Shown here in pieces: positions 9,214-42,642 of a stretch of DNA of 64,000 bases. Under the pieces are notes generated by a model, which did no database searches, was not told the DNA's origin, and worked only from the letters and a program-made list of their open reading frames with translations. Location: contig JAZKZH010000007.1 of assembly GCA_045612545.1 (NCBI GenBank), positions 57,378 to 121,377 on the forward strand, read 5' to 3'. The stretch is from Eubacteriales bacterium (GTDB taxonomy: Bacteria; Bacillota; Clostridia; Oscillospirales; CAG-382). Made by a program: the position numbers and the translations under genes. Within the stretch, counting starts at the first letter, position 1; the number at the start of each line of letters is the position of its first letter.

Positions 9214-9288
9214 GCTGGTGTGGCTCAATGGCAGAGCAGCTGATTTGTAATCAGCAGGTTGGGGGTTCGACTCCCTTCACCAGCTCCA
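9214..9288 (+). tRNA. tRNA-Thr (anticodon UGU)
   Basis: Manual cloverleaf. Acceptor GCTGGTG/CACCAGC; D arm GCTCAATGGCAGAGC; anticodon stem GCTGA/TCAGC with loop TTTGTAA; T arm GGGGGTTCGACTCCC; encoded CCA. Confidence 0.9.
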
Positions 9289-9294
9289 GAATAT

Positions 9295-9379
9295 GGGAGA
9301 ATTCCCGAGTGGCCAAAGGGGACAGACTGTAAATCTGCTGGCATCGCCTTCGGTGGTTCGAATCCACCTTCTCCCACCA
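9295..9379 (+). tRNA. tRNA-Tyr (anticodon GUA), class II with long variable arm
   Basis: Acceptor GGGAGAA/TTCTCCC; anticodon loop CTGTAAA; long variable arm TGGCATCGCCTTCGGTGG region; T arm GGTTCGAATCC; encoded CCA. Confidence 0.9.
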
Positions 9380-12865: not shown

Positions 12866-13013
12866 AATCGAGTAGAAGGAGTATGACGCTTGCAGGAAAA
12901 GCCGTTTTTCGGCTACCGAAGGAATAACACTCTCAGGTTCTGCATTTTCGCAGATGAAGACTGTAAGCTGACGTCACCCCTCCCCAACACACCGCTGTCG
13001 GGGAGGTTCTTTT
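12866..13013 (+). ncRNA. candidate orphan small RNA (about 150 nt), unclassified
   Basis: Possible promoter TTGTGA (12832)-16-TACAAT (12854). Internal hairpins AGCCG/CGGCT and CTGC/GCAG. Terminator stem CCTCCCC/GGGGAGG (12979-13006) followed by TTCTTTT. No plausible ORF. The next gene has its own strong promoter after this terminator. Confidence 0.25.
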
Positions 13014-16723: not shown

Positions 16724-16755
16724 AAAGAAGCGGTTTTTGCCGCTTCTTTTTTTCG
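16724..16755 (+). terminator. intrinsic terminator
   Basis: AAGAAGCGG / CCGCTTCTT stem followed by a T-run. The same hairpin sequence recurs at 17408-17436. Confidence 0.7.
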
Positions 16756-16769
16756 TAAATGCAGAACCG

Positions 16770-16798
16770 TTGACAGCCTTGCCCTTTTATGGTATACT
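16770..16798 (+). promoter_or_regulatory. sigma-A promoter (TTGACA-17-TATACT, TGg extended -10)
   Basis: TTGACA at 16770-16775 and TATACT at 16793-16798. Confidence 0.55.
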
Positions 16799-16818
16799 CA
16801 AAGCAAGAGGTGATCTGT

Positions 16819-17403
16819 ATGAAAACAGTTTTACGCAAGATCGGGGAGTTCTTTTCCCTTCTTTTGGCCTTGCCCCTGATTTTACTTTTTTTGCTGTTCA
16901 TTTTATGCAAAGCTCCCGTAGAATATATCCGCTACCGCCGTTCCATATACCGTAAGGAAACGGGAGAAAAAGCCCATTGGTGGCCGTATAACGATTACAT
17001 CCGTATCTACGACACGGTAAGGGCCAACGACCTCCCTCTGACATTTCTGAGGAACACAGCGGCTGACATCACCGGACACGGCTATTGGATCACAGGAAAC
17101 GCCGCCATTACCCCGGATTGTGGGCTGGCGTACGACGGAGACAAAGGGGAGTGGACGGCAGAGGAAGAGGACGATGAAGGCAATCCCGTTGACTGCGAGA
17201 TCGTAGCCTGCCATCTGGAAGCCTGCCACGCCCTGCCGGGAGGAGAGCATTGCAATTTTGTGTACCTTTTGGTGGATAAAGCCGATGTTCCCGAAAGCGC
17301 TGTGTTATCCTTTGATACCTACCGTATTGTTCCCTATAGCCCCAAAGATCCCCTGCCCGCCTTGGAGGAGATCTTAAAGGCGGAGAAGATCAGCCGTTCA
17401 TAA
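16819..17403 (+). CDS. hypothetical N-terminally anchored protein, paralog 1
   Basis: The start MKTVLRK is preceded by AGAGGTGA. It has one N-terminal TM helix and a shared YRRS.Y motif. Its last ~43 codons are nearly identical at DNA level to those of the 17983 gene. Confidence 0.7.
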   Translation: MKTVLRKIGEFFSLLLALPLILLFLLFILCKAPVEYIRYRRSIYRKETGEKAHWWPYNDYIRIYDTVRANDLPLTFLRNTAADITGHGYWITGNAAITPDCGLAYDGDKGEWTAEEEDDEGNPVDCEIVACHLEACHALPGGEHCNFVYLLVDKADVPESAVLSFDTYRIVPYSPKDPLPALEEILKAEKISRS

Positions 17404-17407
17404 CCAC

Positions 17408-17436
17408 AAGAAGCGGTTTTTGCCGCTTCTTTTTTG
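17408..17436 (+). terminator. intrinsic terminator (duplicate of the 16724 hairpin)
   Basis: AAGAAGCGG TTTTTG CCGCTTCTT followed by TTTT. Confidence 0.7.
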
Positions 17437-17517
17437 GGGTTATGCTTTTTGAACGACGAGCTTAACATCCCGGCCCGGCAAAACGGCAAGTTGGTTTTAG
17501 AACCGCAACGGCTACAT

Positions 17518-17918
17518 GTCATCCTGAGGGAGCCGCGAATGCGGCGAGTCGAAGTTTTGCTTTTTGAAATTGCCCGTTGTCTTTGGATACATAGTTTCTT
17601 TTGCAGCAATTTCTAAAAAGCAAAACCGTAAGGGATCTCCTACGAGTCTGATCTACCCCTACAAAGGCAAACTTACATTTTTTGTGATAAAACAGTTCTT
17701 TAGCTTTGGAAAGGTACATCAGACTCTCAGTAGATCCCGCCTGCGGCGGGTTTGCTTCGTTCGCTACGCTCACCTACGCAAAACTTCGACGTGCGCGGAG
17801 ATGACTGCAATACGTAGCCACAGGGAATACAATCCGCGCGTGCTCAGGATGACCAAGTCGGCGAAACAAAACTACGCATAAGACAAAAGCCCTGCGCCGA
17901 CTTGGGATGAGGTTCCTC
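17518..17918. repeat. composite non-coding repeat island with nested inverted repeats
   Basis: The unit GTCATCCTGAG...GTCGAAGTTTTGC at 17518-17560 recurs inverted at 17778-17853. An inner inverted repeat is GAGTCTGAT (17644) / ATCAGACTC (17718). The 38-nt unit at 17689-17726 matches 51885 and 52231 in reverse. A solo MITE-like end GGGATGAGGTTCCT sits at about 17905-17918. Confidence 0.7.
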
Positions 17919-17947
17919 TTGACAGGAACATCCCTCTTTGCTATACT
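17919..17947 (+). promoter_or_regulatory. sigma-A promoter (TTGACA-17-TATACT) for the 5-gene operon
   Basis: TTGACA at 17919-17924 and TATACT at 17942-17947. Confidence 0.55.
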
Positions 17948-17982
17948 GGACACACAACCACCCCGTAAGAAAGGAGACTCCC

Positions 17983-18573
17983 ATGAAAAACGCATTGCGC
18001 TCTGTGCGGGACGTGATCCTGTTGGTTTTGCTCTTGCCCTTGCTCTTGCTGGTTTTCGCCTGTTACCTTCTCACCTTCCCCATCACGTTTTTCCGCTACC
18101 GCCGTTCCCCGTATTACAAGGACACGGGAGAGAAGTGCAAGCTGTGGGGACTTACCGATTACGTCCGCTTGTATAACGTCATCAAGAAAAACGGCCTTCC
18201 CATGACCTACCTGCGGGCAAAGGAAGTCCCTCTCACGGGTTACGGCTATTGGATCTTGGGCAACGCCGCCGTGACCTTCGGCTACGAGCCGGAATACGAC
18301 GAGCAAACGGAAGCCTGGCTGTCCAAACAAGAGGATGAGGAGGGAGAACCCTCTGCACCTCGCCCTTTATGGGAAGCTTATCTGGAGGAGTGCAATTCCC
18401 TCCCCGGGGGAGAAGGGTGCGGCTTTGTGTACCTTTTGGTGGATAAAGCCGATGTTCCCGAAAGCGCTGTGTTATCCTTTGATACCTACCGCATTGTTCC
18501 CTATAGCCCCAAAGATCCCCTGCCCGCCTTGGAGGAGATCTTAAAGGCGGAAAATATCCCCTCGGAGGTATAA
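17983..18573 (+). CDS. hypothetical N-terminally anchored protein, paralog 2
   Basis: The start MKNALRS is preceded by AAAGGAGA. The architecture matches the 16819 gene, and bases 18424-18551 match 17257-17384 at 127 of 128 positions. Confidence 0.7.
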   Translation: MKNALRSVRDVILLVLLLPLLLLVFACYLLTFPITFFRYRRSPYYKDTGEKCKLWGLTDYVRLYNVIKKNGLPMTYLRAKEVPLTGYGYWILGNAAVTFGYEPEYDEQTEAWLSKQEDEEGEPSAPRPLWEAYLEECNSLPGGEGCGFVYLLVDKADVPESAVLSFDTYRIVPYSPKDPLPALEEILKAENIPSEV

Positions 18574-20801: not shown

Positions 20802-21905
20802 ATGTTCCGCATCATTTTTGGATTGGTATTCCTTTTGGGGATCGCGGGGATCTTCTATTTAGGCAACCGCCTTTGCAAATATCCCCCTTTTCGGGGCAGA
20901 AAGCTGCCCATTCGGTTGCTTGCCTACCCGGTGCTTCCTTTGCTTTGCTATTTAGCCGTGAAGCTGTTGGGGATCTCCAACTTCAATATCATCGTATTAC
21001 TTCTGCACTTGGTGATCTTTTGGCTGTTTTGCGACCTTGGCTTTTGGTTGGCAGAAAAGATCAGAAAAAAGAAGCCCCGCCGTTACTACGCGGGGGTCAC
21101 CGCCATTCTGTTGACGGTGGTGTATTTGGGGCTTGGATGGTTTTTTGCCCACCACGTGTTCGTCACGGAATATGATCTCACCACGGAAAAAGACACCCCT
21201 CCCCTCACCATCGTGCAGATCACGGACGCCCACATCGGCGTCACCTTGGACGGGGAGTCCTTTGCCCGCGAGATGGAAAAAGTGCAATCCCAACACCCCG
21301 ATGTCGTGGTGATCACCGGAGATTTTGTGGACGATGATTCTTCAAAAGAGGATATGCTCGCCGCCTGCGAGGCCTTGGGGGAGCTAAAAACTCCCTACGG
21401 CGTGTTTTTCGTCTACGGCAACCACGACAAGGGCTACTTCCGCGACGGCACCTTCACGGGGGAAGAGCTGCGGGAGGCTTTGACGGCCAACGGCGTGAAG
21501 ATCTTGGAGGATGAAGCCGTACTGCTGGCCAACTCCACCCAAGGCAACGTGTGCTACCTGGTGGGCAGAAAGGACGCTTCCGTAAGAGACCGCCTCTCTA
21601 TGGAAGAGCTGATGGCGGATCTTGACCCATCCGTCTACACCGTGGTGTTGGATCACCAGCCCACGGATTTTGACGCCGAGGCGCAGGCAAAGGTTGACCT
21701 GGTGCTGTGCGGACATACCCACGGCGGACACCTCTTCCCCACGGGACTTGTGGGCGTGTGGTTCGGGGGCAACGACCTCTGCTACGGCAAAGAGGTGCGG
21801 GAAGGCTCCACCTTTATCGTGTCCTCCGGCATCTCCGGCTGGGCAATGCCCTTTAAGACCGGGTGTATCTCCGAGATCGTGACTGTTCGCGTGGCGGAGG
21901 GATAA
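20802..21905 (+). CDS. membrane-bound metallophosphoesterase (calcineurin-like)
   Basis: N-terminal TM helices are followed by QITDAHIG, ITGDFVDD, GNHD and CGHTHGG phosphoesterase motifs. Confidence 0.85.
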   Translation: MFRIIFGLVFLLGIAGIFYLGNRLCKYPPFRGRKLPIRLLAYPVLPLLCYLAVKLLGISNFNIIVLLLHLVIFWLFCDLGFWLAEKIRKKKPRRYYAGVTAILLTVVYLGLGWFFAHHVFVTEYDLTTEKDTPPLTIVQITDAHIGVTLDGESFAREMEKVQSQHPDVVVITGDFVDDDSSKEDMLAACEALGELKTPYGVFFVYGNHDKGYFRDGTFTGEELREALTANGVKILEDEAVLLANSTQGNVCYLVGRKDASVRDRLSMEELMADLDPSVYTVVLDHQPTDFDAEAQAKVDLVLCGHTHGGHLFPTGLVGVWFGGNDLCYGKEVREGSTFIVSSGISGWAMPFKTGCISEIVTVRVAEG

Positions 21906-22090
21906 AAAAGCGAATGATTTTTACCACCGTTGGCATTTCGACGAGGCAAAAAGCCTCCCCTTAGTATAGGGGAAGAAGGGATTGTCCCACAGGTAAAACT
22001 TGCTTCCCGCTCTTTCACAAAAAGTATCTTTCAGAACGGTCAACCCCCTCAGTCGCGGTGCAAGCACCTTGACAGCTCCCGCCTTCCAGG

Positions 22091-22182
22091 GGGAGCCTTT
22101 CTCCGGCATCTCCGGCTGGGCAATGCCCTTTAAGACCGGCTGTATCTCCGAGATCGCGGTGATTCGCGTAGCGGGAGAATAA
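22091..22182 (+). pseudogene. detached second copy of the metallophosphoesterase 3' end
   Basis: It has 39-nt and 16-nt perfect blocks shared with 21828-21883, followed by a diverged tail and its own TAA. It encodes SGISGWAMPFKTGCISEIAVIRVAGE. Confidence 0.75.
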
Positions 22183-22191
22183 AGATGGAAT

Positions 22192-22363
22192 GGGACGCCG
22201 TGGACGTCGTCCCCTACAAACCCGCACATAGCTTGGTGAACAAAGATATACGCAATAAGATGGGCAAAAAACGATTTCCTACCGTTTTTATTGCGAGAGG
22301 TAATTCCATGTTTTCCCTCCTTCCCGATTCGGGCTCGTAGGGGACGACGTCCTTCGGCGTCCC
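22192..22363. repeat. REP doublet 1 (two GTAG-headed palindromic units, heads facing inward)
   Basis: 22192-22224 reads GGGACGCCGTGGACGTCGTCCCCTACAAACCCG (reverse orientation). 22330-22363 reads CGGGCTCGTAGGGGACGACGTCCTTCGGCGTCCC. Confidence 0.75.
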
Positions 22364-22460
22364 GCTTGCGTTTTGCTGCGAAACGGCTTTACACTATCTT
22401 TGATGCGTGAACTTTGTTTCAGTACCGAGAAACACACCGGCACTCGCTAAGGGGAGTCTT

Positions 22461-22513
22461 TCTCCGGGTGTATCTCCGAGATCGTGGTGATTCGCGTGGC
22501 GGGAGAAAAATAA
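22461..22513 (+). pseudogene. detached third, shorter copy of the metallophosphoesterase 3' end
   Basis: TCTCCGGGTGTATCTCCGAGATCGTGGTGATTCGCGTGGCGGGAGAAAAATAA encodes GCISEIVVIRVAGEK. Confidence 0.7.
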
Positions 22514-22572
22514 ACGCTCATAAATACCACAGCTCCCCTTGCTTAGGGGAGCCTTTGTTTTCTTGCTTTGGC

Positions 22573-22734
22573 GGGGCGCCGTGGGCGTCGCCCCCTACAG
22601 ACCCGAAACAAGATCGCGTTGAAAGATGACCTCCCCCCTCCCGCGCCAACGGCTTTTCACCCAACGCATTGCGTGCGTCTTTGTTTGCGCCGCCCCGGTT
22701 GCGGTTTCGTAGGGGATGACGCCCTCGGCATCCC
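22573..22734. repeat. REP doublet 2
   Basis: 22573-22605 reads GGGGCGCCGTGGGCGTCGCCCCCTACAGACCCG (reverse orientation). 22701-22734 reads GCGGTTTCGTAGGGGATGACGCCCTCGGCATCCC. Confidence 0.75.
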
Positions 22735-22793
22735 GTCGCATCCCCAAAAACAAAAAGGCTAAGCTATCAAAGCTCAGCCTTTTTTCGTTGTGA

Positions 22794-24215
22794 TCAAGAA
22801 GCGTTGCCCCAGTAGAACTCCCACAGGGTCACAATTCCGGTTTCGGAATCATACAGGAAGCAATCGAAGGAACACCGCCACTCCTCCGTGGGCAAGCAGT
22901 TGTATTCTTCTGTATGCCAATTGTACAGCAGGATGTAATCATACCCGCCCTCAAAAGGCAGGATAGCTTTTACCTCCTCCGGCAGATCCGGAAGCCAGTT
23001 TGCTTCCTCCGTCAAGCCTGCCTCAAAGGCTCCTCTCTCATCGGCGGAAATCACCGCAATGCAGACAGCGGTAATTTCGTAGGAGTCGTCCTCCAAAATG
23101 GCCTCCTCATAGAAGGTGGTGGTCATAAAATCCGTTTCCGGCAAGATCACTCCTGCATACTCCGCCAAAGAAAACGTTACCTGAGCATATTCTTCGTCGG
23201 TGTAATCCAGGTCGAATTCTGTATTTGCGATGGAGAACAAAAGCAATCCGCAAAGGATTCCCACCACGATGTTTTTCGTGGCTTTTTTCTTCTTGCTCCG
23301 CAGATATATACCCACCGCAAGGGAAGCAAGGGGCAGGATCATCATCAAGTAATATACCCAATAATAATCAAACAAAAGGAACGCGTCCCCCCCGGCCAAA
23401 AGACCCACGCCCGCCGCCGCAATGACGCCCAAAAAAGGCGATAAGAGGCACAGATAAACCAAGCCGATGGAGATCCACCGCCAAAGTCCTTTGGTGACAG
23501 ACAGCTTATTCTTTGGCAAATTGCTCTTCAAAAGAAGCTCCAGGCGGGAATCCGGCTCTAACGCTCCCTTTTGGAACAGACTTACGGGGAACAGATACAG
23601 CGTGCTTCCGTGATACAGATGGTAGAAGAAGTTATCCACCGACACGGTATTGATCTGATCGTAGGGAATGCAATGAACGATGGGCGTTCCCTCGTCGCCG
23701 TTGGTGGCAAACACCAGCTCGCCGTCATACAAGGAGACTTCCACCGTCTTCCCGGGGAAGCTCTTCATGGCGTAATTGCGTTCCTTGCGGTTGTTCCACC
23801 ACAGAAATACCATGATTCCCGTTGCCGCCGTGCAAAGTCCTGCGTAAAACGCGGCCTCCACCCAAAAGCCGGCAACCGTCACCACCGCAAAAAGAACGAT
23901 CATCGATATAAAAACAGAACTCTGCCCTTTGTACATCTTCTTCAAGAGCTCTTCTTCGTAGGTAAAGGTATGCTTTTCCAACGCCTTCGGTTCTTTTTCC
24001 TCCAAAGCTTGGGGCTCCTCTTCCTTCCCCAAAAGCTCGTCCACGGAGATGCCGAAGATGTCCTTCAACAAAAGCAGGTTATCCACCGTGGGCAGGGTCT
24101 GATCCTTCTCCCAAAGGCTCACCGTCTGGCGGCTCACCAAAAGCCGTTGCCCAAGCTCCTCTTGGGAAAGCCCGTTTTTCTTACGGTGCTCTTGAATACG
24201 TTGACCAACCGTCAT
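22794..24215 (-). CDS. XRE-family HTH regulator fused to a multi-pass membrane / YcxB-like sensor region (paralog 1)
   Basis: The start at MTVGQRIQEHRKKNGLSQEELG is preceded by GGAGG 8 nt upstream. A classic Cro/C1 HTH is followed by TM helices and a YHLYHG..LYLFP..F block shared with the 24491 and 26038 genes. Confidence 0.8.
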   Translation of the reverse strand: MTVGQRIQEHRKKNGLSQEELGQRLLVSRQTVSLWEKDQTLPTVDNLLLLKDIFGISVDELLGKEEEPQALEEKEPKALEKHTFTYEEELLKKMYKGQSSVFISMIVLFAVVTVAGFWVEAAFYAGLCTAATGIMVFLWWNNRKERNYAMKSFPGKTVEVSLYDGELVFATNGDEGTPIVHCIPYDQINTVSVDNFFYHLYHGSTLYLFPVSLFQKGALEPDSRLELLLKSNLPKNKLSVTKGLWRWISIGLVYLCLLSPFLGVIAAAGVGLLAGGDAFLLFDYYWVYYLMMILPLASLAVGIYLRSKKKKATKNIVVGILCGLLLFSIANTEFDLDYTDEEYAQVTFSLAEYAGVILPETDFMTTTFYEEAILEDDSYEITAVCIAVISADERGAFEAGLTEEANWLPDLPEEVKAILPFEGGYDYILLYNWHTEEYNCLPTEEWRCSFDCFLYDSETGIVTLWEFYWGNAS

Positions 24216-24306
24216 GCTATCGCCTCCATTTCTTTGCACTCAGTATACACCAAACCCAAGAAAAAAGCAAGCACCAATGGCTTGCTTTTGTCAAGTTGCG
24301 CTTGCA
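24027..24306. repeat. about 280-bp direct repeat, copy 1 (HTH-coding 5' end plus promoter/terminator region)
   Basis: Near-identical to 25709-25988. There are a few substitutions in the coding part and one short variable patch in the 5' UTR. Confidence 0.85.
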
Positions 24307-24490: not shown

Positions 24491-25897
24491 TTATTCCCCC
24501 TCGTTCGCCGTATATTCGATGGCGTACTCATCCAGAACGCCTATACCCGCTTTATACGCCACCCGCAGGAATTGATACGTTCCGCTCTCTGCGGGAAGCT
24601 TGTTAAACTCCCCTGTGGTTATGTTGTAAATGGAAAGATAATCGAACTCCATGGTCCCCACGGAAATAGGGATCAGCTCGGCAGGAAGCTCCTTCATCCA
24701 AGCGGGATCATCTGCGATACCCAACTCAAAGTCTATACTTTCCTTCGTCTTAAATTGCGCGCGCCGGGTGGAAAAATGGGCAACCCCATCCACAAAGCCG
24801 CCGCCCTCGTAGGTTTGAACGATGGACAACACGGGAGGAAGCTCCACTCCAAGGTTTACGATCTCCTCCTCTGCCGTCTTTTGCAGCTTTTCATGCCACT
24901 CGATGGTGCCGGGCATATATACCCCAAACCGCAAAGCGACGGACAGCACGATCACGCCTACGATCAGGTTGTGCAGCCCCTTTTTGTTCTTGAAAAGCAG
25001 GAAGAGTCCCGCCGCAACACATCCCACGGGGATGGCCATCGCAGGGATCATAGTCCAGATAAGCGCGGCGCGGGGATCCTCTGCCATCAAAATGAAGTCA
25101 CTGGCAGGAATGAGCAAAAAATATTCCAAATACGCCAGCACGCAAAGGCTCAAGGAAATAACCCGGGGGAGCCCCTTCGCTTTTTTCCGCCTGCTTTGCT
25201 CCTCCTGTCTTTTCAACAAGACCTCCAAACGGGACTCGGGGTCGTATTCTCCTTTTTCAAGCAAGGCGTGGGGGATCAGATACTCCTTCCCTTGATGATA
25301 CATCATATAGTAGGTCAGATCTTTATGTACCTTTTCGATCTCGCCATAAGGAACACGGGCTTCCCACTGTATCTTCCCATCCCGCGAAAAGGTTGCCAGC
25401 AGTTCCCCTTCGTAAAGGAGCAGCTCCAAGCTGCCGCCCGGCAAGGAATGCAGATATCTTCTTCTGCGTCTCAAAACAAAAGCAAGATCAACGAACAGCG
25501 CACAGCTCACAAGGAGAACGAAGGAGCCGTAAAGGCGATCCAAGAAGGCGTAGCCGTCCCACAGAATGGAGATCCCCCAAAAAGCAAGAAGCGCACCCAG
25601 AATCACCCGAACCCAAATATACCGGTGAAACAGCTTGGCGAGAGGATCCCGTTCGTAAGGGATCTCCCATTTCTCCAACGGCGGGTTTTCTTCGCCCTTC
25701 TTCTCCACCCCCAAAAGCTCGTCCACGGAGATGCCGAAGATGTCCTTCAACAAAAGCAGGTTATCCACTGTGGGCAGGGTCTGATCCTTCTCCCAAAGGC
25801 TGATGGTCTGGCGGCTCACCAAAAGCCGTTGCCCAAGCTCCTCTTGGGAAAGCCCGTTTTTCTTACGGTGCTCTTGAATACGTTGACCAACCGTCAT
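24491..25897 (-). CDS. XRE-family HTH regulator fused to a multi-pass membrane / YcxB-like sensor region (paralog 2)
   Basis: The first ~70 aa are identical to the 22794 gene except for one V/I change. The downstream regions are diverged. A terminator hairpin at about 24457-24485 follows the stop codon. Confidence 0.8.
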   Translation of the reverse strand: MTVGQRIQEHRKKNGLSQEELGQRLLVSRQTISLWEKDQTLPTVDNLLLLKDIFGISVDELLGVEKKGEENPPLEKWEIPYERDPLAKLFHRYIWVRVILGALLAFWGISILWDGYAFLDRLYGSFVLLVSCALFVDLAFVLRRRRRYLHSLPGGSLELLLYEGELLATFSRDGKIQWEARVPYGEIEKVHKDLTYYMMYHQGKEYLIPHALLEKGEYDPESRLEVLLKRQEEQSRRKKAKGLPRVISLSLCVLAYLEYFLLIPASDFILMAEDPRAALIWTMIPAMAIPVGCVAAGLFLLFKNKKGLHNLIVGVIVLSVALRFGVYMPGTIEWHEKLQKTAEEEIVNLGVELPPVLSIVQTYEGGGFVDGVAHFSTRRAQFKTKESIDFELGIADDPAWMKELPAELIPISVGTMEFDYLSIYNITTGEFNKLPAESGTYQFLRVAYKAGIGVLDEYAIEYTANEGE

Positions 25898-25988
25898 GCT
25901 ATCGCCTCCATTTCTTTGCACTCAGTATACATCATCCCAAAGGAAAAAGCAAGCACCAATGGCTTGCTTTTGTCAAGTTATACTTGCA
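25709..25988. repeat. about 280-bp direct repeat, copy 2
   Basis: See 24027-24306. It includes the hairpin AAGCAAGC ACCAATG GCTTGCTT. Confidence 0.85.
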
Positions 25989-32382: not shown

Positions 32383-32459
32383 GTGGGTGTAGCTCAGTTG
32401 GTTAGAGCACTTGCTTGACATGCAAGGGGTCGTTGGTTCAAGTCCATTCATCCACACCA
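32383..32459 (+). tRNA. tRNA-Val (anticodon GAC)
   Basis: Acceptor GTGGGTG/CATCCAC (one G-U pair); D arm GCTCAGTTGGTTAGAGC; anticodon stem CTTGC/GCAAG with loop TTGACAT; T loop TTCAAGT; encoded CCA. There is one T-stem mismatch. Confidence 0.85.
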
Positions 32460-39763: not shown

Positions 39764-39821
39764 AAATCAATCCAATCCCCGAAAACGACAGTTTTCGGCA
39801 AAATAAGTTTCTTTGGAGATT

Positions 39822-39859
39822 GTTAAGAACCTTTCTTTTTCGAAAGAAAGGTTCTTAAC
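39822..39859. repeat. perfect 17-bp-stem hairpin with TTCG loop (U-tract-less terminator or processing site)
   Basis: GTTAAGAACCTTTCTTT TTCG AAAGAAAGGTTCTTAAC. It begins 3 nt after the symporter stop codon and lies upstream of the dehydrogenase gene. Confidence 0.8.
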
Positions 39860-39862
39860 ATA

Positions 39863-41437
39863 TTATTCGCCTAAAGACTTTTTAGCGCTGGAAACCACCT
39901 TTTCATCGTAGCAGGAGAACATTTCCTCCACGCCGGTGGGGCAGGACTTGCGGGTCAGCAGGCTCACCAAGGGAACCAAAACCAAGCCCAACAGCATAGC
40001 GAACACACCGGAATGCAAGGAGGTCTTGAACAGGAATCCATCCAACAGCTCCACACCGAAGGAGAAGCCGGTCAAGGACTTTACAAGCTGTACCAAGCTG
40101 ATAACCACACCGCAGACAAAGCTGACGTAAACGGAGGCGCGGGTAACCTTCTTGTGGAACAAGCCGTACAGGAAGGGCGCCAGGAAAGCGCCTGCCAATG
40201 CACCCCAGGAAACGCCCATGAGCTGCGCGATGAACACCACCTTGGATTTTGCCTGCACGATGGCGATCACGGCAGAGATCAGGATGAACAGCGCGATCAT
40301 CACACGCATCACGTTCATCTTGCCCTTTTCCGTCATCTTGCCCTTCATGGCGGGATTGATCAGATCCAGCGTAATGGTGGAGCCGCTGGTCAGCACCAAG
40401 GAAGACAGGGTGGACATGGAAGCGGAAAGCACCAGAACCAAAACCACAGCGATGAGAAGGTCGGGCATTCCCTCCAGCATGGCGGGAATGATGGCGTCGA
40501 AGCCTTTTTCCGCTACCGCCTCGGGAGTGAGGAACAGTCGACCAAAGCCGCCAATGAAGTAACAGCCCCCTGCCACCACGATGGCAAAGGCGGTGGAGAT
40601 AATAGTTCCCTTTCGCACGGCGGCCTCGTCACGGATGGCGTAGAATTTACCCACCATCTGAGGCAAGCCCCAAGTGCCGAGAGAGGTCAGCAGTACCACC
40701 ACCAGCAGGAACAAGGGATCCGGCCCTAAGAAGGAAGCGAATCCGCCAAGGAAGCTTTCCCCTGCGGGAGTCACAGCTTCCTTTTCCGCCAGAGCGATCA
40801 AGGAGCCGGTCAAACCGCCGTTTTGGGAAAGCACCGCCGCGATCACCGCCACGATACCGCCCAGCATGATGAGACCTTGAATAAAATCGTTCACCGCGGT
40901 GGCAACGTAGCCGCCGATGATGACGTAAATACCGGTGAGAATGGCCATCACGATCACACAGACCGCATAGTCCACACCGGGGAAGGCCATCTCAAAGAGA
41001 CGGGAAAGTCCGTTGAACAAGGATGCGGTGTAGGGGATCAGGAACACGAACACGATCACGGAGGCAAAGAGCTTTAAGCCCTTGCTTTGATATCGAAGCT
41101 CAAAAAAGTCCGGCATGGTGCGGGAATCCAGCTTTTGGGTCATCAAGCGGGTACGTCTGCCCAAAATCACCCAAGCCATCAAGGAGCCGATGAAGGCGTT
41201 GCCCAAGCCGATCCAAGTGGAGGCCACGCCGAAATTCCAGCCGAACTGCCCTGCGTAACCCACGAAGATCACCGCGGAAAAGTAGCTGGTACCGAAGGCG
41301 AAGGCTGTCAGCCACGGGCCAACCGCACGTCCGCCCAAAACAAAGCCGTTGACATCCGTAGCCTTAGCGCGGCAGTAAATGCCCACCCCAACGGTCACGG
41401 CAAAAAAGATCACCAGCAAAGCAATTTTCAAGATCAT
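39863..41437 (-). CDS. sodium:solute symporter family transporter
   Basis: About 13 TM segments. GFVLGGRAVGPWLTAFAFGTSYFSA is typical of SSF (PanF/PutP-like) transporters. I prefer the start at MILKIAL (GGAG 8 nt upstream) over the ATG at 41470. Confidence 0.85.
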   Translation of the reverse strand: MILKIALLVIFFAVTVGVGIYCRAKATDVNGFVLGGRAVGPWLTAFAFGTSYFSAVIFVGYAGQFGWNFGVASTWIGLGNAFIGSLMAWVILGRRTRLMTQKLDSRTMPDFFELRYQSKGLKLFASVIVFVFLIPYTASLFNGLSRLFEMAFPGVDYAVCVIVMAILTGIYVIIGGYVATAVNDFIQGLIMLGGIVAVIAAVLSQNGGLTGSLIALAEKEAVTPAGESFLGGFASFLGPDPLFLLVVVLLTSLGTWGLPQMVGKFYAIRDEAAVRKGTIISTAFAIVVAGGCYFIGGFGRLFLTPEAVAEKGFDAIIPAMLEGMPDLLIAVVLVLVLSASMSTLSSLVLTSGSTITLDLINPAMKGKMTEKGKMNVMRVMIALFILISAVIAIVQAKSKVVFIAQLMGVSWGALAGAFLAPFLYGLFHKKVTRASVYVSFVCGVVISLVQLVKSLTGFSFGVELLDGFLFKTSLHSGVFAMLLGLVLVPLVSLLTRKSCPTGVEEMFSCYDEKVVSSAKKSLGE

Positions 41438-41477
41438 AAAATTTCTCCAAAAAAAGAAAGGTTGAAACATTTGCGAA

Positions 41478-41996
41478 TCATTCGGGTTTTCCGTAAATCT
41501 CGCGGAAATACCATCGAGCCGGGTTATAAACCATATAATGCTCCACGGCCTCTCTGTCGTGAAAATTGCGGATCACATGGTCATATGCTCCCCGCTGGAA
41601 AACGGCTCTGCCGATCGCTTTGTTACACTGCCTTTTAAACATGGACACAAAGCAAGCGATCACTTCTGAAGCGGGTTCTTTCCTCTCCTGCCAGTCATCT
41701 TCAAGAACGGTTGCAATAAGATGAATGTGGTTTGGCATGATCACATAACGTTCCACACGCAGGTTTTTAGAGCGATTCGTCATCAAAAGATATTTCTCCG
41801 CGATTTTGCCGTAGTCCGACAAAACCACACGAACATAAGCTCCATCCCCATTATAAGGATAATCTCCCTCCGTCCCGGGTTCAATGCGAGAGAGAATGCA
41901 AGCTTTGTCCTTCACACAAATCGTCAGAAAATACGAGCCACCGTTGCTGTAACTATAACCTGCTAAACGGGTGTTTTTCCTTTTGGGAAGAGACAT
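41478..41996 (-). CDS. REP-associated tyrosine transposase (RAYT; IS200/IS605 TnpA-like Y1 HUH enzyme)
   Basis: 172 aa. The HUH motif is MPNHIHLI, and the C-terminal QRGAYDHVIRN....YMVYNPARW carries the catalytic Tyr helix. RBS AAGGAG. A REP doublet lies immediately upstream. Confidence 0.8.
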   Translation of the reverse strand: MSLPKRKNTRLAGYSYSNGGSYFLTICVKDKACILSRIEPGTEGDYPYNGDGAYVRVVLSDYGKIAEKYLLMTNRSKNLRVERYVIMPNHIHLIATVLEDDWQERKEPASEVIACFVSMFKRQCNKAIGRAVFQRGAYDHVIRNFHDREAVEHYMVYNPARWYFREIYGKPE

Positions 41997-42022
41997 GGCA
42001 AACTCCTTCGTTCAAGCAATTT

Positions 42023-42194
42023 GCGGAGCGTCTTACGGAGGTAACCCTCCTAAAGCCGCTCCCTACGGTCACAAACCCTGTTAGAGAGAAAAATATTCCG
42101 CTCATTTCATCGCAATAAGCGGCATTTTTTGCAAATGCTTCAAAAAATGTAGGGGGCGGCTTAAAACGCCGTTTCCGGCGGATAGACGCCCCGC
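42023..42194. repeat. REP doublet 3, directly upstream of the RAYT gene
   Basis: 42023-42078 ends ...GCCGCTCCCTACGGTCACAAACCC (reverse orientation). 42149-42194 reads GTAGGGGGCGGCTTAAAACGCCGTTTCCGGCGGATAGACGCCCCGC. The GTAG heads face inward as in doublets 1 and 2. Confidence 0.7.
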
Positions 42195-42210
42195 ATATCT
42201 TATACCGTAA

Positions 42211-42642
42211 TTACAGCTTCTGAATATCGGATTCCTGCACCAATTTGAATCCGGCGGCAACAAGAGCTTGTCCTGCAGCGACGTCATCTTTCACACGAAG
42301 AACCACGTAAGCGTGCTTCTCGGTGCGGGTCAAAAAGGCGTACAGATATTCAATATTGATCTTTGCCTCGTCCAACACGTTGAGGGCCTGGGCCAATCTG
42401 CCGGGGGCGTCGGAGATCTTCACCGCAATAACGGGGGTTATATTGACAATGTGTCCACCCTCCCGCAAAACGGCAAGAGCATGGTCTACGTCCTTCACTA
42501 TCAACCGCAACACGCCGAATTCCTGCGTATCCGCCATGGAAAGAGCACGAAGATCCACGTCATGGGCCGCAAGCTCTCGGGTAATCTCTGCCATTGCGCC
42601 CTGTCTGTTTTCTACAAAAACGGTTAACTGTCTGATAAGCAT
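42211..42642 (-). CDS. ACT domain-containing protein
   Basis: 143 aa with two ACT-like beta-alpha-beta-beta-alpha-beta units (LTVFVENRQGAMAEIT.., ISDAPGRLAQAL..). This is the typical partner gene downstream of paaK in iorAB clusters. Confidence 0.75.
   Translation of the reverse strand: MLIRQLTVFVENRQGAMAEITRELAAHDVDLRALSMADTQEFGVLRLIVKDVDHALAVLREGGHIVNITPVIAVKISDAPGRLAQALNVLDEAKINIEYLYAFLTRTEKHAYVVLRVKDDVAAGQALVAAGFKLVQESDIQKL

Follow-up and report, generated by a model that had tools for sequence, protein, structure and literature searches.

A probable REPtron in a gut Clostridia genome: a RAYT gene with an adjoining pair of GTAG-headed REP units

RAYT and REP systems described so far, and the present locus

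To our knowledge, nearly all work on RAYT/REP systems (RAYT, REP-associated tyrosine transposase) has concerned Proteobacteria. The TnpA-REP protein of E. coli (RayT/YafM; PDB 4ER8; PMC3333891, PMC3479197, PMC8266576) is a transposase with the Y1 HUH fold, a Y---NP motif and a region that contacts the GTAG head of a REP. In the REPtron and BIMEs of this species, the single-copy gene adjoins GTAG-headed REPs whose long stem carries an irregularity, either a mismatch or a bulge, and the BIMEs consist of a REP and an inverted REP joined by a linker. The same layout of REP plus inverted REP is found in REPINs (PMC8266576, PMC3116915), in which the inverted REPs are <130 bp apart (PMC3116915). The TnpA proteins of IS200/IS605 elements such as IS608 and ISDra2 have the same fold, act on single-stranded DNA hairpins and use the same HUH/Tyr chemistry. 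For Clostridia/Oscillospiraceae gut lineages specifically, we found no RAYT or REP descriptions in the literature beyond a mention of Bertels group 1, which is reported in Clostridia and described as lacking REPs (PMC5581495).

Here we analyze a locus in a 64-kb stretch of DNA (the whole stretch is called ‘the window’) from an uncultured, little-studied member of the gut Clostridia. The features of interest are listed in Table 1. In our reading, the locus is very probably a REPtron, that is, a domesticated single-copy RAYT gene with a BIME/REPIN-like cognate REP pair directly upstream. The properties listed above for the E. coli protein, its REPtron and its BIMEs are all shared by this locus. 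There are also differences: E. coli is a gammaproteobacterium, whereas the host here is an anaerobic gut Clostridia, and the gene of a classic REPtron usually has REPs both upstream and downstream, whereas both REPs of the window locus are upstream. Compared with REPINs, the window contains three doublets of inverted REPs within the same distance limit, and the arms can pair mutually (87–93% over 14–15 nt at both ends), but the spacers are long (82–119 nt) and fast-diverging, and the arms of the RAYT-flanking doublet end in unrelated apical hairpins. Several traits of IS200/IS605 elements are absent from the locus, namely Y---Q, a hairpin at each end, multiple copies and the frequent tnpB partner. 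A system of this type is known, and the current picture of RAYTs and REPs is unchanged by it; if our reading is right, what the locus shows is the logic of a single-copy domesticated Y1 protein and GTAG-headed REPs in uncultured gut Clostridia.

Table 1. Features of the RAYT locus and of the short-REP doublets, in positions of the window
Feature	Position	Strand	Basis or remarks
Sodium:solute symporter gene (SSF family), 524 aa	39863..41437	-	Pfam PF00474, E 6e-52; homologues 524 aa
RAYT/TnpA-REP gene, 172 aa	41478..41996	-	ORF, ATG start
RAYT Shine-Dalgarno AAGGAG, 6 nt before ATG	42003..42008	-	sequence inspection
REP unit A, proximal, composite	42022-42066	-	GTAGGGAGCGGCTTTAGGAGGGTTACCTCCGTAAGACGCTCCGCA; 45-47 nt class
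Spacer between REP heads, 82 nt	42067..42148		fast-diverging among species
Terminator-like hairpin in spacer	42098-42122	-	terminator scan
REP unit B, distal, composite	42149-42195	+	GTAGGGGGCGGCTTAAAACGCCGTTTCCGGCGGATAGACGCCCCGCA; 45-47 nt class
ACT-domain protein gene	42211..42642	-	Pfam PF19571; synteny in L001-L006, L090, L091, L095
Short-REP doublet, head to head, 119-nt spacer	22192..22363		units 22192-22217 (-), 22337-22363 (+)
Second short-REP doublet, head to head, 110-nt spacer	22573..22734		units 22573-22598 (-), 22709-22734 (+)

The RAYT gene, its protein and their placement among Y1 transposases

The initial annotation described a 172-aa protein with an HUH motif and a C-terminal Tyr motif, and both are present in the open reading frame. 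The HUH residues are H90-I91-H92 in the string MPNHIHLI; the Tyr motif is YMVYNPARW, with the catalytic Y154 followed by N158, P159 and W162, and the distance from HUH to Tyr is 64 aa. The catalytic residues H90, H92, Y154, N158 and Q134 are intact in the window protein and invariant in the family, for which we use an alignment of 49 homologues. N158 aligns with N119 of the E. coli protein, the counterpart of Q131 in IS608. The AlphaFold2 model (pLDDT 88.7, pTM 0.84) includes a beta-hairpin insertion (residues 36–59) that is extra relative to E. coli TnpA-REP. An exact-sequence look-up returned no record identical to the window protein.

A search of 5.8 billion proteins yields 55 homologues, mostly unnamed, and the wider superfamily is very large, with 11,558 cluster representatives when E values up to 1e-3 are admitted and 2,353 when the limit is 1e-10. 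The sole NCBIfam match of the window protein is NF047646 (‘REP-associated tyrosine transposase’), with E 2e-14 and a score of 53.6 bits, under the cutoff of 80. This model matches all 49 aligned homologues (best E 2e-21), and the IS200 model matches 18 of the 49. Pfam returns zero matches to the window protein, even at E 1; its Y1_Tnp family matches 44 of the 49 homologues but not this one, so Pfam alone misses the RAYT gene. When the family profile is compared with known structures, E. coli TnpA-REP (4er8) is matched at E 2.5e-11, ISDra2 TnpA at 1.7e-3 and Sulfolobus TnpA at 0.014. Foldseek, given the predicted model, likewise places 4er8 at the top (E 3.7e-7, TM 0.57–0.59), followed by IS200/IS605 transposases, and the 30 best matches are all Y1 transposases. 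Whether judged from sequence, profile or fold, the best PDB match is 4er8; identity over the fold alignment is only ~17%.

Y1 transposases can be assigned to class 1 (IS200) by Y---Q and DH[VI]H and to class 2 (TnpA-REP) by Y---NP (PMC6006769). The IS200/IS605 signature is absent from the window protein, which has YMVYNP and NHIH instead; the E. coli protein differs from it in having EHMH (E58-H59-M60-H61 in 4er8). Placement of the window protein in class 2, as a Y1 transposase of the RAYT/TnpA-REP type and no canonical IS200 TnpA, is supported by the motifs and the profile matches. Judged from its sequence, the protein is nearer to the RAYT models, yet it is a divergent member.

The residues through which E. 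coli TnpA-REP contacts the GTAG guide are W94, Q95, E100, H101 and R104 (PMC6006769), and they align with F133, Q134, D139, H140 and R143 of the window protein. Of these residues, Q, H and R are kept, whereas the window protein has D in place of E and F in place of W. Q134 and R143 do not vary within the family, and D139 and H140 hardly do. The change from E to D is also present in subclasses 2.5 and 2.7 (PMC6006769). The change from W to F is restricted to the window protein and its closest relatives, the family consensus being WQ.

With class 2 TnpA-Y1 proteins in general, the window protein shares the Y---NP signature, a low copy number, WQ in the family consensus and an HUH-to-Tyr spacing inside the range of 58–67 aa that holds for most subclasses (PMC6006769). 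Subclasses 2.4, 2.6 and 2.7 have a similar set of motifs (NH[I]H, WQ and YIxxNP), but the spacings of 88 aa in 2.4 and 82 aa in 2.6 rule out these two. From subclass 2.1 (equivalent to Bertels group 1) the window protein differs in its length of 172 aa and its lack of a C-terminal tail. When compared with the subclass descriptions, its combination of motifs and spacing is no clean fit to any single Quentin subclass.

Upstream of the REP doublet is an IorA-IorB-PaaK-ACT cluster, of which the ACT-domain gene is the last member, and downstream of the RAYT gene is the symporter gene. For the latter, the ATG at 41437 is favored as the start codon because it is preceded by GGAG and agrees with homologues of 524 aa; with this choice, the 40 nt previously given for the distance from the RAYT stop codon to the symporter start codon holds, whereas an alternative in-frame ATG at 41470 would leave a gap of 7 nt only. 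Co-transcription of the two genes is plausible because the terminator scan gives no terminator-like site between them, and transcription probably runs on from the RAYT gene into the symporter gene. A scan for sigma-70 promoters in 41300–42400 returned none.

Orthologous loci, empty sites and the age of the indel

Orthologues of the RAYT gene occupy the same slot in several metagenome contigs, with identities of 81% (L001–L006), 79% (L098/L099) and 58% (L095/L096); the locus is the same in four lineages. The gene order at these loci is IorA - IorB - PaaK - ACT - REP doublet - RAYT - symporter - 2-hydroxyacid dehydrogenase, and the gap between RAYT and symporter is 17–40 nt in all orthologues. 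The Shine-Dalgarno sequence of the window gene is kept in L002, L098 and L099; in its place, L095 has AAAGGAGG. For the sister species, represented by L002 in the comparisons below, the six longest of 24 contigs all have the same neighbors. This single context, together with the presence of one Y1 gene in the entire window, bears out the initial impression that the gene is single-copy.

Between the window and the sister species, 63% of synonymous sites differ (pS). The dN/dS ratio is 0.077 for the RAYT gene and 0.05–0.08 for the neighboring genes; by this measure, the RAYT gene is under purifying selection, as its neighbors are. As read from the contigs, the loci show that the gene and the doublet are inherited vertically at one slot, between the ACT-domain gene and the symporter gene, across several species-level lineages. 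In other lineages they are, on the same kind of evidence, lost or never gained.

Relatives without the gene can be identified via homology of the symporter. In L090 (symporter 86% identical to that of the window), the ACT-domain gene and the symporter gene are separated by 187 nt, with neither a RAYT gene nor a GTAG-headed REP. In L091 (83%), they are separated by 240 nt; the RAYT gene is absent and a head-to-head doublet of short REPs is present, in which the short REP GTAGGGGACGACGTCCACGGCGTCCC is identical to the window unit at 22192–22217. In L093 (75%, full length), the symporter gene directly follows PaaK and the RAYT gene is absent, and in L100 no RAYT 3' end is present in the 222-nt stretch preceding the symporter gene. 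Given the empty sites in which the ACT-domain gene directly precedes the symporter gene, the RAYT gene is a discrete indel.

The indel can be viewed in L091 and the RAYT-bearing L095, which are sisters (symporter 92%, PaaK 91% and ACT 92% identical). When aligned, the two share sequence as far as and including the proximal REP's head and basal stem (GCGTTACCGTAGGGGACGA), and the shared sequence resumes at the RAYT stop codon and the ribosome-binding site of the symporter gene. What separates them is an indel of ~560 nt, essentially the open reading frame and its leader. The doublet of L091 thus persists without the gene, and in this sense a REP doublet is independent of an adjacent RAYT.

The gene had first been described as inserted upstream of the symporter gene. 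The discrete indel agrees with that description. Two deep branches carry the RAYT gene, one containing the window, L002 and L098 and the other containing L095, and the gene is absent from L091 and from L090/L100; an ancestral gene that was later lost explains this distribution no less parsimoniously than repeated insertion would, and no less well than a recent insertion would. Whether it arose by insertion or by loss, the indel is old, to judge from its distribution among the contigs.

A gene that is an indel relative to close relatives, and that encodes a protein with the fold and HUH/Tyr chemistry common to IS200/IS605 TnpA, could belong to an autonomous insertion sequence of that type, with the two hairpins as its ends. 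The weak match of the IS200 model to 18 of the 49 homologues points in the same direction. Nevertheless, we consider this extremely unlikely. By the criteria of PMC6006769, the protein has Y---NP instead of Y---Q. Both hairpins are upstream of the gene, and the 40 nt between its stop codon and the symporter gene contain no palindrome, in keeping with the earlier statement that IS ends are lacking. There is no tnpB, the neighbors being the ACT-domain protein and the SSF symporter. Finally, RAYTs that are up to 42% different occupy the same slot in their lineages, dN/dS is as low as for the neighboring genes, and the window holds one copy. An active IS200-like element is largely refuted by the Y---NP motif, the one-sided hairpins, the fixed slot and the dN/dS ratio.

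The tight coupling to the symporter gene raises another alternative, in which the protein is a catalytically inert relic or a co-opted non-transposase, for instance a regulator that binds single-stranded DNA and controls the symporter operon. The replacement of W94 by F and the failure of Pfam Y1_Tnp to detect the protein would be understandable in such a case. We think this very unlikely, because the residues H90, H92, Y154, N158 and Q134 are intact and invariant in the family. The strong purifying selection argues against decay, although it would still be compatible with a changed role. A pseudogene is ruled out by the intact catalytic residues and the dN/dS of 0.077.

The REP units, their relatives and their possible use

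Two GTAG-headed palindromes facing inward had been noted upstream of the RAYT gene, and they are recovered as units A and B on opposite strands, with their GTAG heads facing each other 82 nt apart. Of the coordinates given in the initial annotation, one needs correction: the interval 42023–42078 overruns the GTAG head of unit A by 12 nt, and the others stand. The distance from unit A to the RAYT start codon is 25–28 nt, depending on whether a GCA tail is counted; 27 nt was first reported. On its other side, the doublet is close to the ACT-domain gene, with 15 nt (42196–42210) between unit B and the stop codon. The arrangement proposed at the outset, a REP-associated transposase next to its substrates, is thus what is found as far as layout is concerned, with the GTAG-headed hairpin units adjoining the RAYT gene on the upstream side only.

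In unit A, the GTAG head adjoins a basal stem of 6 bp (GGAGCG/CGCTCC), above which come a G.A mismatch, a stem of CTT/AAG and the apical hairpin, GGAGG/CCTCC. Unit B has the same modules, with GGGGCG/CGCCCC as its basal stem. Beyond the mismatch, both units consist of the CTT/AAG stem, an internal loop and an apical hairpin of 5 bp. Folded as single-stranded DNA, unit A has an energy of -15.0 kcal/mol (z -4.2) and unit B -15.1 kcal/mol (z -3.2). The pattern GTAGGG...CCGCA is observed 3 times versus 0.7 expected, which is weak when taken alone. A search of the window with Rfam gave zero RNA families at the RAYT locus.

Stronger evidence comes from the sister species L002, with a RAYT protein 81% identical to that of the window. 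Identity between the two is 91% for unit A and 95.5% for the core of unit B, versus 59% for the spacer and 60–64% for the outer flanks. The contrast between units (91–95% kept) and spacer (59%) is decisive in ruling out a chance pair of hairpins. Nine orthologous REP units can be compared for pairing: over the nine pairs of the basal and middle parts, pairing reaches 97.5%, versus 41–59% in slid controls, and the pair changes comprise three two-sided changes (G-C to A-T or C-G to T-A) and zero one-sided changes. The apical hairpins have unrelated sequences but are always paired (GGAGG/CCTCC, GGGTTC/GAACCC, CGCCG/CGGCG and GGGCTT/AAGCCC), and one further apical hairpin is longer and imperfect (GCCCCTCGGC...GCCGAGACGGGC). 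Because the nine units are a small sample of related sequences, this covariation supports a constraint on REP structure and head, short of proof.

The units at 42 kb had been assigned to the same family as the doublets at 22.2–22.7 kb. All six GTAG-headed units of the window have GTAG followed by a 6-bp stem GG[G/A][A/G]CG with its exact complement, the exception being GGGATG in the unit at 22709. Above the basal stem, an unpaired purine is opposite another purine, the mismatch being G.A at 42 kb and A.G at 22 kb. The doublet at 22192..22363 combines the GTAG head and the A.G mismatch with a basal stem GGGACG/CGTCCC, and the unit at 22573–22598 is identical to unit B in its head and basal stem (GGGGCG/CGCCCC). 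The four 22-kb units have a 2-bp stem and a 4–5-nt loop on top, for a total of 26–27 nt, and lack the apical hairpin. Since the head, stem and mismatch are shared, the assignment to one family holds for the module relevant to recognition; the 42-kb units, with their additional apical hairpin, represent a composite variant. Within the 64 kb, the composite 45–47-nt type occurs at this locus only, and related short units number four. A scan of a metagenome collection nearly without this species, and hence of low power, found the composite REP only at the same locus (L089, 99.5% identical) and in two chance matches to coding sequences.

If the locus is a REPtron, a course of events can be proposed from work on the E. 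coli system (PMC3333891, PMC3479197, PMC8266576). The TnpA-REP-like protein would bind the REP folded as a single-stranded DNA hairpin. It would read the 5' GTAG guide via the region of Q134, D139-H140 and R143, and it would also read the irregular stem, in the form of the purine-purine mismatch above the 6-bp basal stem. Cleavage beside the hairpin would be performed by Y154 with a metal ion held by H90 and H92, giving a 5'-phosphotyrosine intermediate, and rejoining of strands would then maintain or spread short GTAGGG-headed doublets such as those at 22.2–22.7 kb.

The available loci include several comparative states: loci with the gene, a locus in which the gene is lost but the REP doublet kept, and a locus with neither; in addition, the basal REP module is constant while the apical hairpin varies. 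These states form a natural series for RAYT recognition and for the persistence of REPs without a RAYT. It is also possible, if rather doubtful, that the protein and its hundreds of relatives in gut Clostridia constitute a distinct, undescribed subclass of class 2 TnpA-REP, with a private composite ‘master’ REP doublet from which the short dispersed REPs derive by loss of the apical module. Such a doublet would consist of a conserved GTAG head, a basal stem bearing a purine mismatch and a freely varying apical hairpin. Were this true, the group would offer a Gram-positive anaerobe model for RAYT-REP co-evolution, with L091 and L095 as natural gene-loss variants for testing.

A broader test of the association between gene and REPs uses 80 homologous loci among the matches listed in GTDB species genomes, with identities of at most 46% to the window protein. 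Their hosts are almost all Clostridia MAGs (Oscillospiraceae, Acutalibacteraceae, Ruminococcaceae and Faecousia). At these listed loci, the density of GTAGGG-headed hairpins is 0.72 per kb up to 350 nt from the gene versus 0.13 per kb elsewhere, a 5.5-fold enrichment. At 21 of the 80, at least one GTAGGG hairpin is nearby, and some of these loci have one on either side of the gene; the flanks contain many more, in dispersed positions.

This enrichment bears on a simpler explanation of the doublet, in which the two units act as ordinary REP-type terminators of the IorAB-PaaK-ACT operon or stabilize its mRNA, and the Y1 protein, adjacent by coincidence, does not act on them. Unit B is indeed separated from the ACT stop codon by only 15 nt, and a T run comes after it on the transcribed strand; the spacer contains a terminator-like hairpin, and L091 has a REP doublet at the same site without a RAYT. 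Mere coincidence would not, however, account for the 5.5-fold enrichment of GTAGGG hairpins beside RAYT homologues across 80 unrelated listed loci, the GTAG head is invariant although termination has no need of it, and the residues that contact GTAG are kept in the protein. We therefore regard a role confined to termination or mRNA stabilization as unlikely. The roles of terminator and RAYT substrate are compatible, and the REPs of the proposed REPtron, folded as hairpins of RNA or DNA, probably also serve to punctuate transcription coming from the operon upstream.

The synteny search found no neighbor genes in common with the window among the 80 listed loci, so the distant homologues are uninformative on the slot between the ACT-domain and symporter genes. 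Between these genomes, the stems of the hairpins vary, and the head and the CCG tail are constant. As a separate observation, L008 and L081 are two divergent RAYT paralogues in one MAG.

Divergence across the RAYT locus

Synonymous divergence between the window and its sister species, taken here from metagenome contig L002, was calculated gene by gene along the locus. The ACT and RAYT genes both have dS values of ~1.4; for the genes on either side (PaaK, IorB, symporter and dehydrogenase) the values are 0.26-0.63. The segment made up of the ACT gene, the REPs and the RAYT gene looks like a patch of higher divergence, and may possibly have recombined.

REP and palindrome positions in relatives

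In metagenome contig L091, which belongs to the sister lineage of the RAYT-bearing contig L095, the orthologous site is ‘empty’: the RAYT gene is absent, and a short-type REP doublet lies between the ACT and symporter genes. The REP core of this doublet is identical to one of the short REP units in the window. Two further contigs, L087 and L088, from an unrelated organism of high GC content, match the composite-REP pattern within apparent coding sequence; these matches were taken as chance.

A perfect 18-bp palindrome, TGTTAAGAACCTTTCTTT...AAAGAAAGGTTCTTAACA, is found directly downstream of the symporter gene, both in the window and in the sister-species contigs (L001-L006). In L090, another relative without RAYT at this slot, the stem sequence is instead upstream of the symporter gene, within the ACT-symporter spacer. 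This element may represent a terminator that was relocated or a palindrome able to move.

Repeats and RNA features elsewhere in the window

The terminal 83 nt of a metallophosphoesterase-like gene are found again downstream at 88% identity, its terminal 47 nt recur a second time, and a head-to-head doublet of short REPs comes after each of these pseudo-3' ends. The region resembles a tandem segmental duplication that repeats every ~280-380 nt, its unit made up of the 3' end of the gene together with a REP doublet.

Nearby is a tandem pair of paralogous genes for ~480-aa membrane proteins with identical N-termini (MQRNGGDSMTVGQRIQEHRKKNGLSQEELGQRLLVSRQT...), accompanied by duplicated hairpins. 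Two other sets of hairpins, identical or near-identical within each set and with members spaced ~0.7-1.2 kb from each other, suggest local duplication. An Rfam scan also returned three tRNA genes and a glycine riboswitch aptamer, the latter scoring 35.5 bits, barely over the gathering score.

Coordinates of the features discussed (window unless a contig is named)
Feature	Position	Counterpart
ACT/REP/RAYT segment	41478-42642	L002 5354-6525
Short REP unit	22192-22217	L091 4790-4929 (doublet)
Composite-REP pattern matches		L087 2418-2467; L088 142-191
18-bp palindrome	39821-39860	L002 8129-8160; L090 4330-4360 (stem)
Metallophosphoesterase-like gene	20802..21905 (+)	22101-22183 (83 nt); 22464-22510 (47 nt)
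3'-end/REP repeat region	21824-22745	
Membrane-protein paralogues	22794-24239 (-)	24491-25921 (-)
Paralogue-associated hairpins	~24262	~25945
Hairpin repeats (16724-18542)	17345-17375	18512-18542
Hairpin repeats (16724-18542)	16724-16749	17412-17437
Riboswitch aptamer and tRNA genes	12883-12973, 9214-9376, 32383-32456
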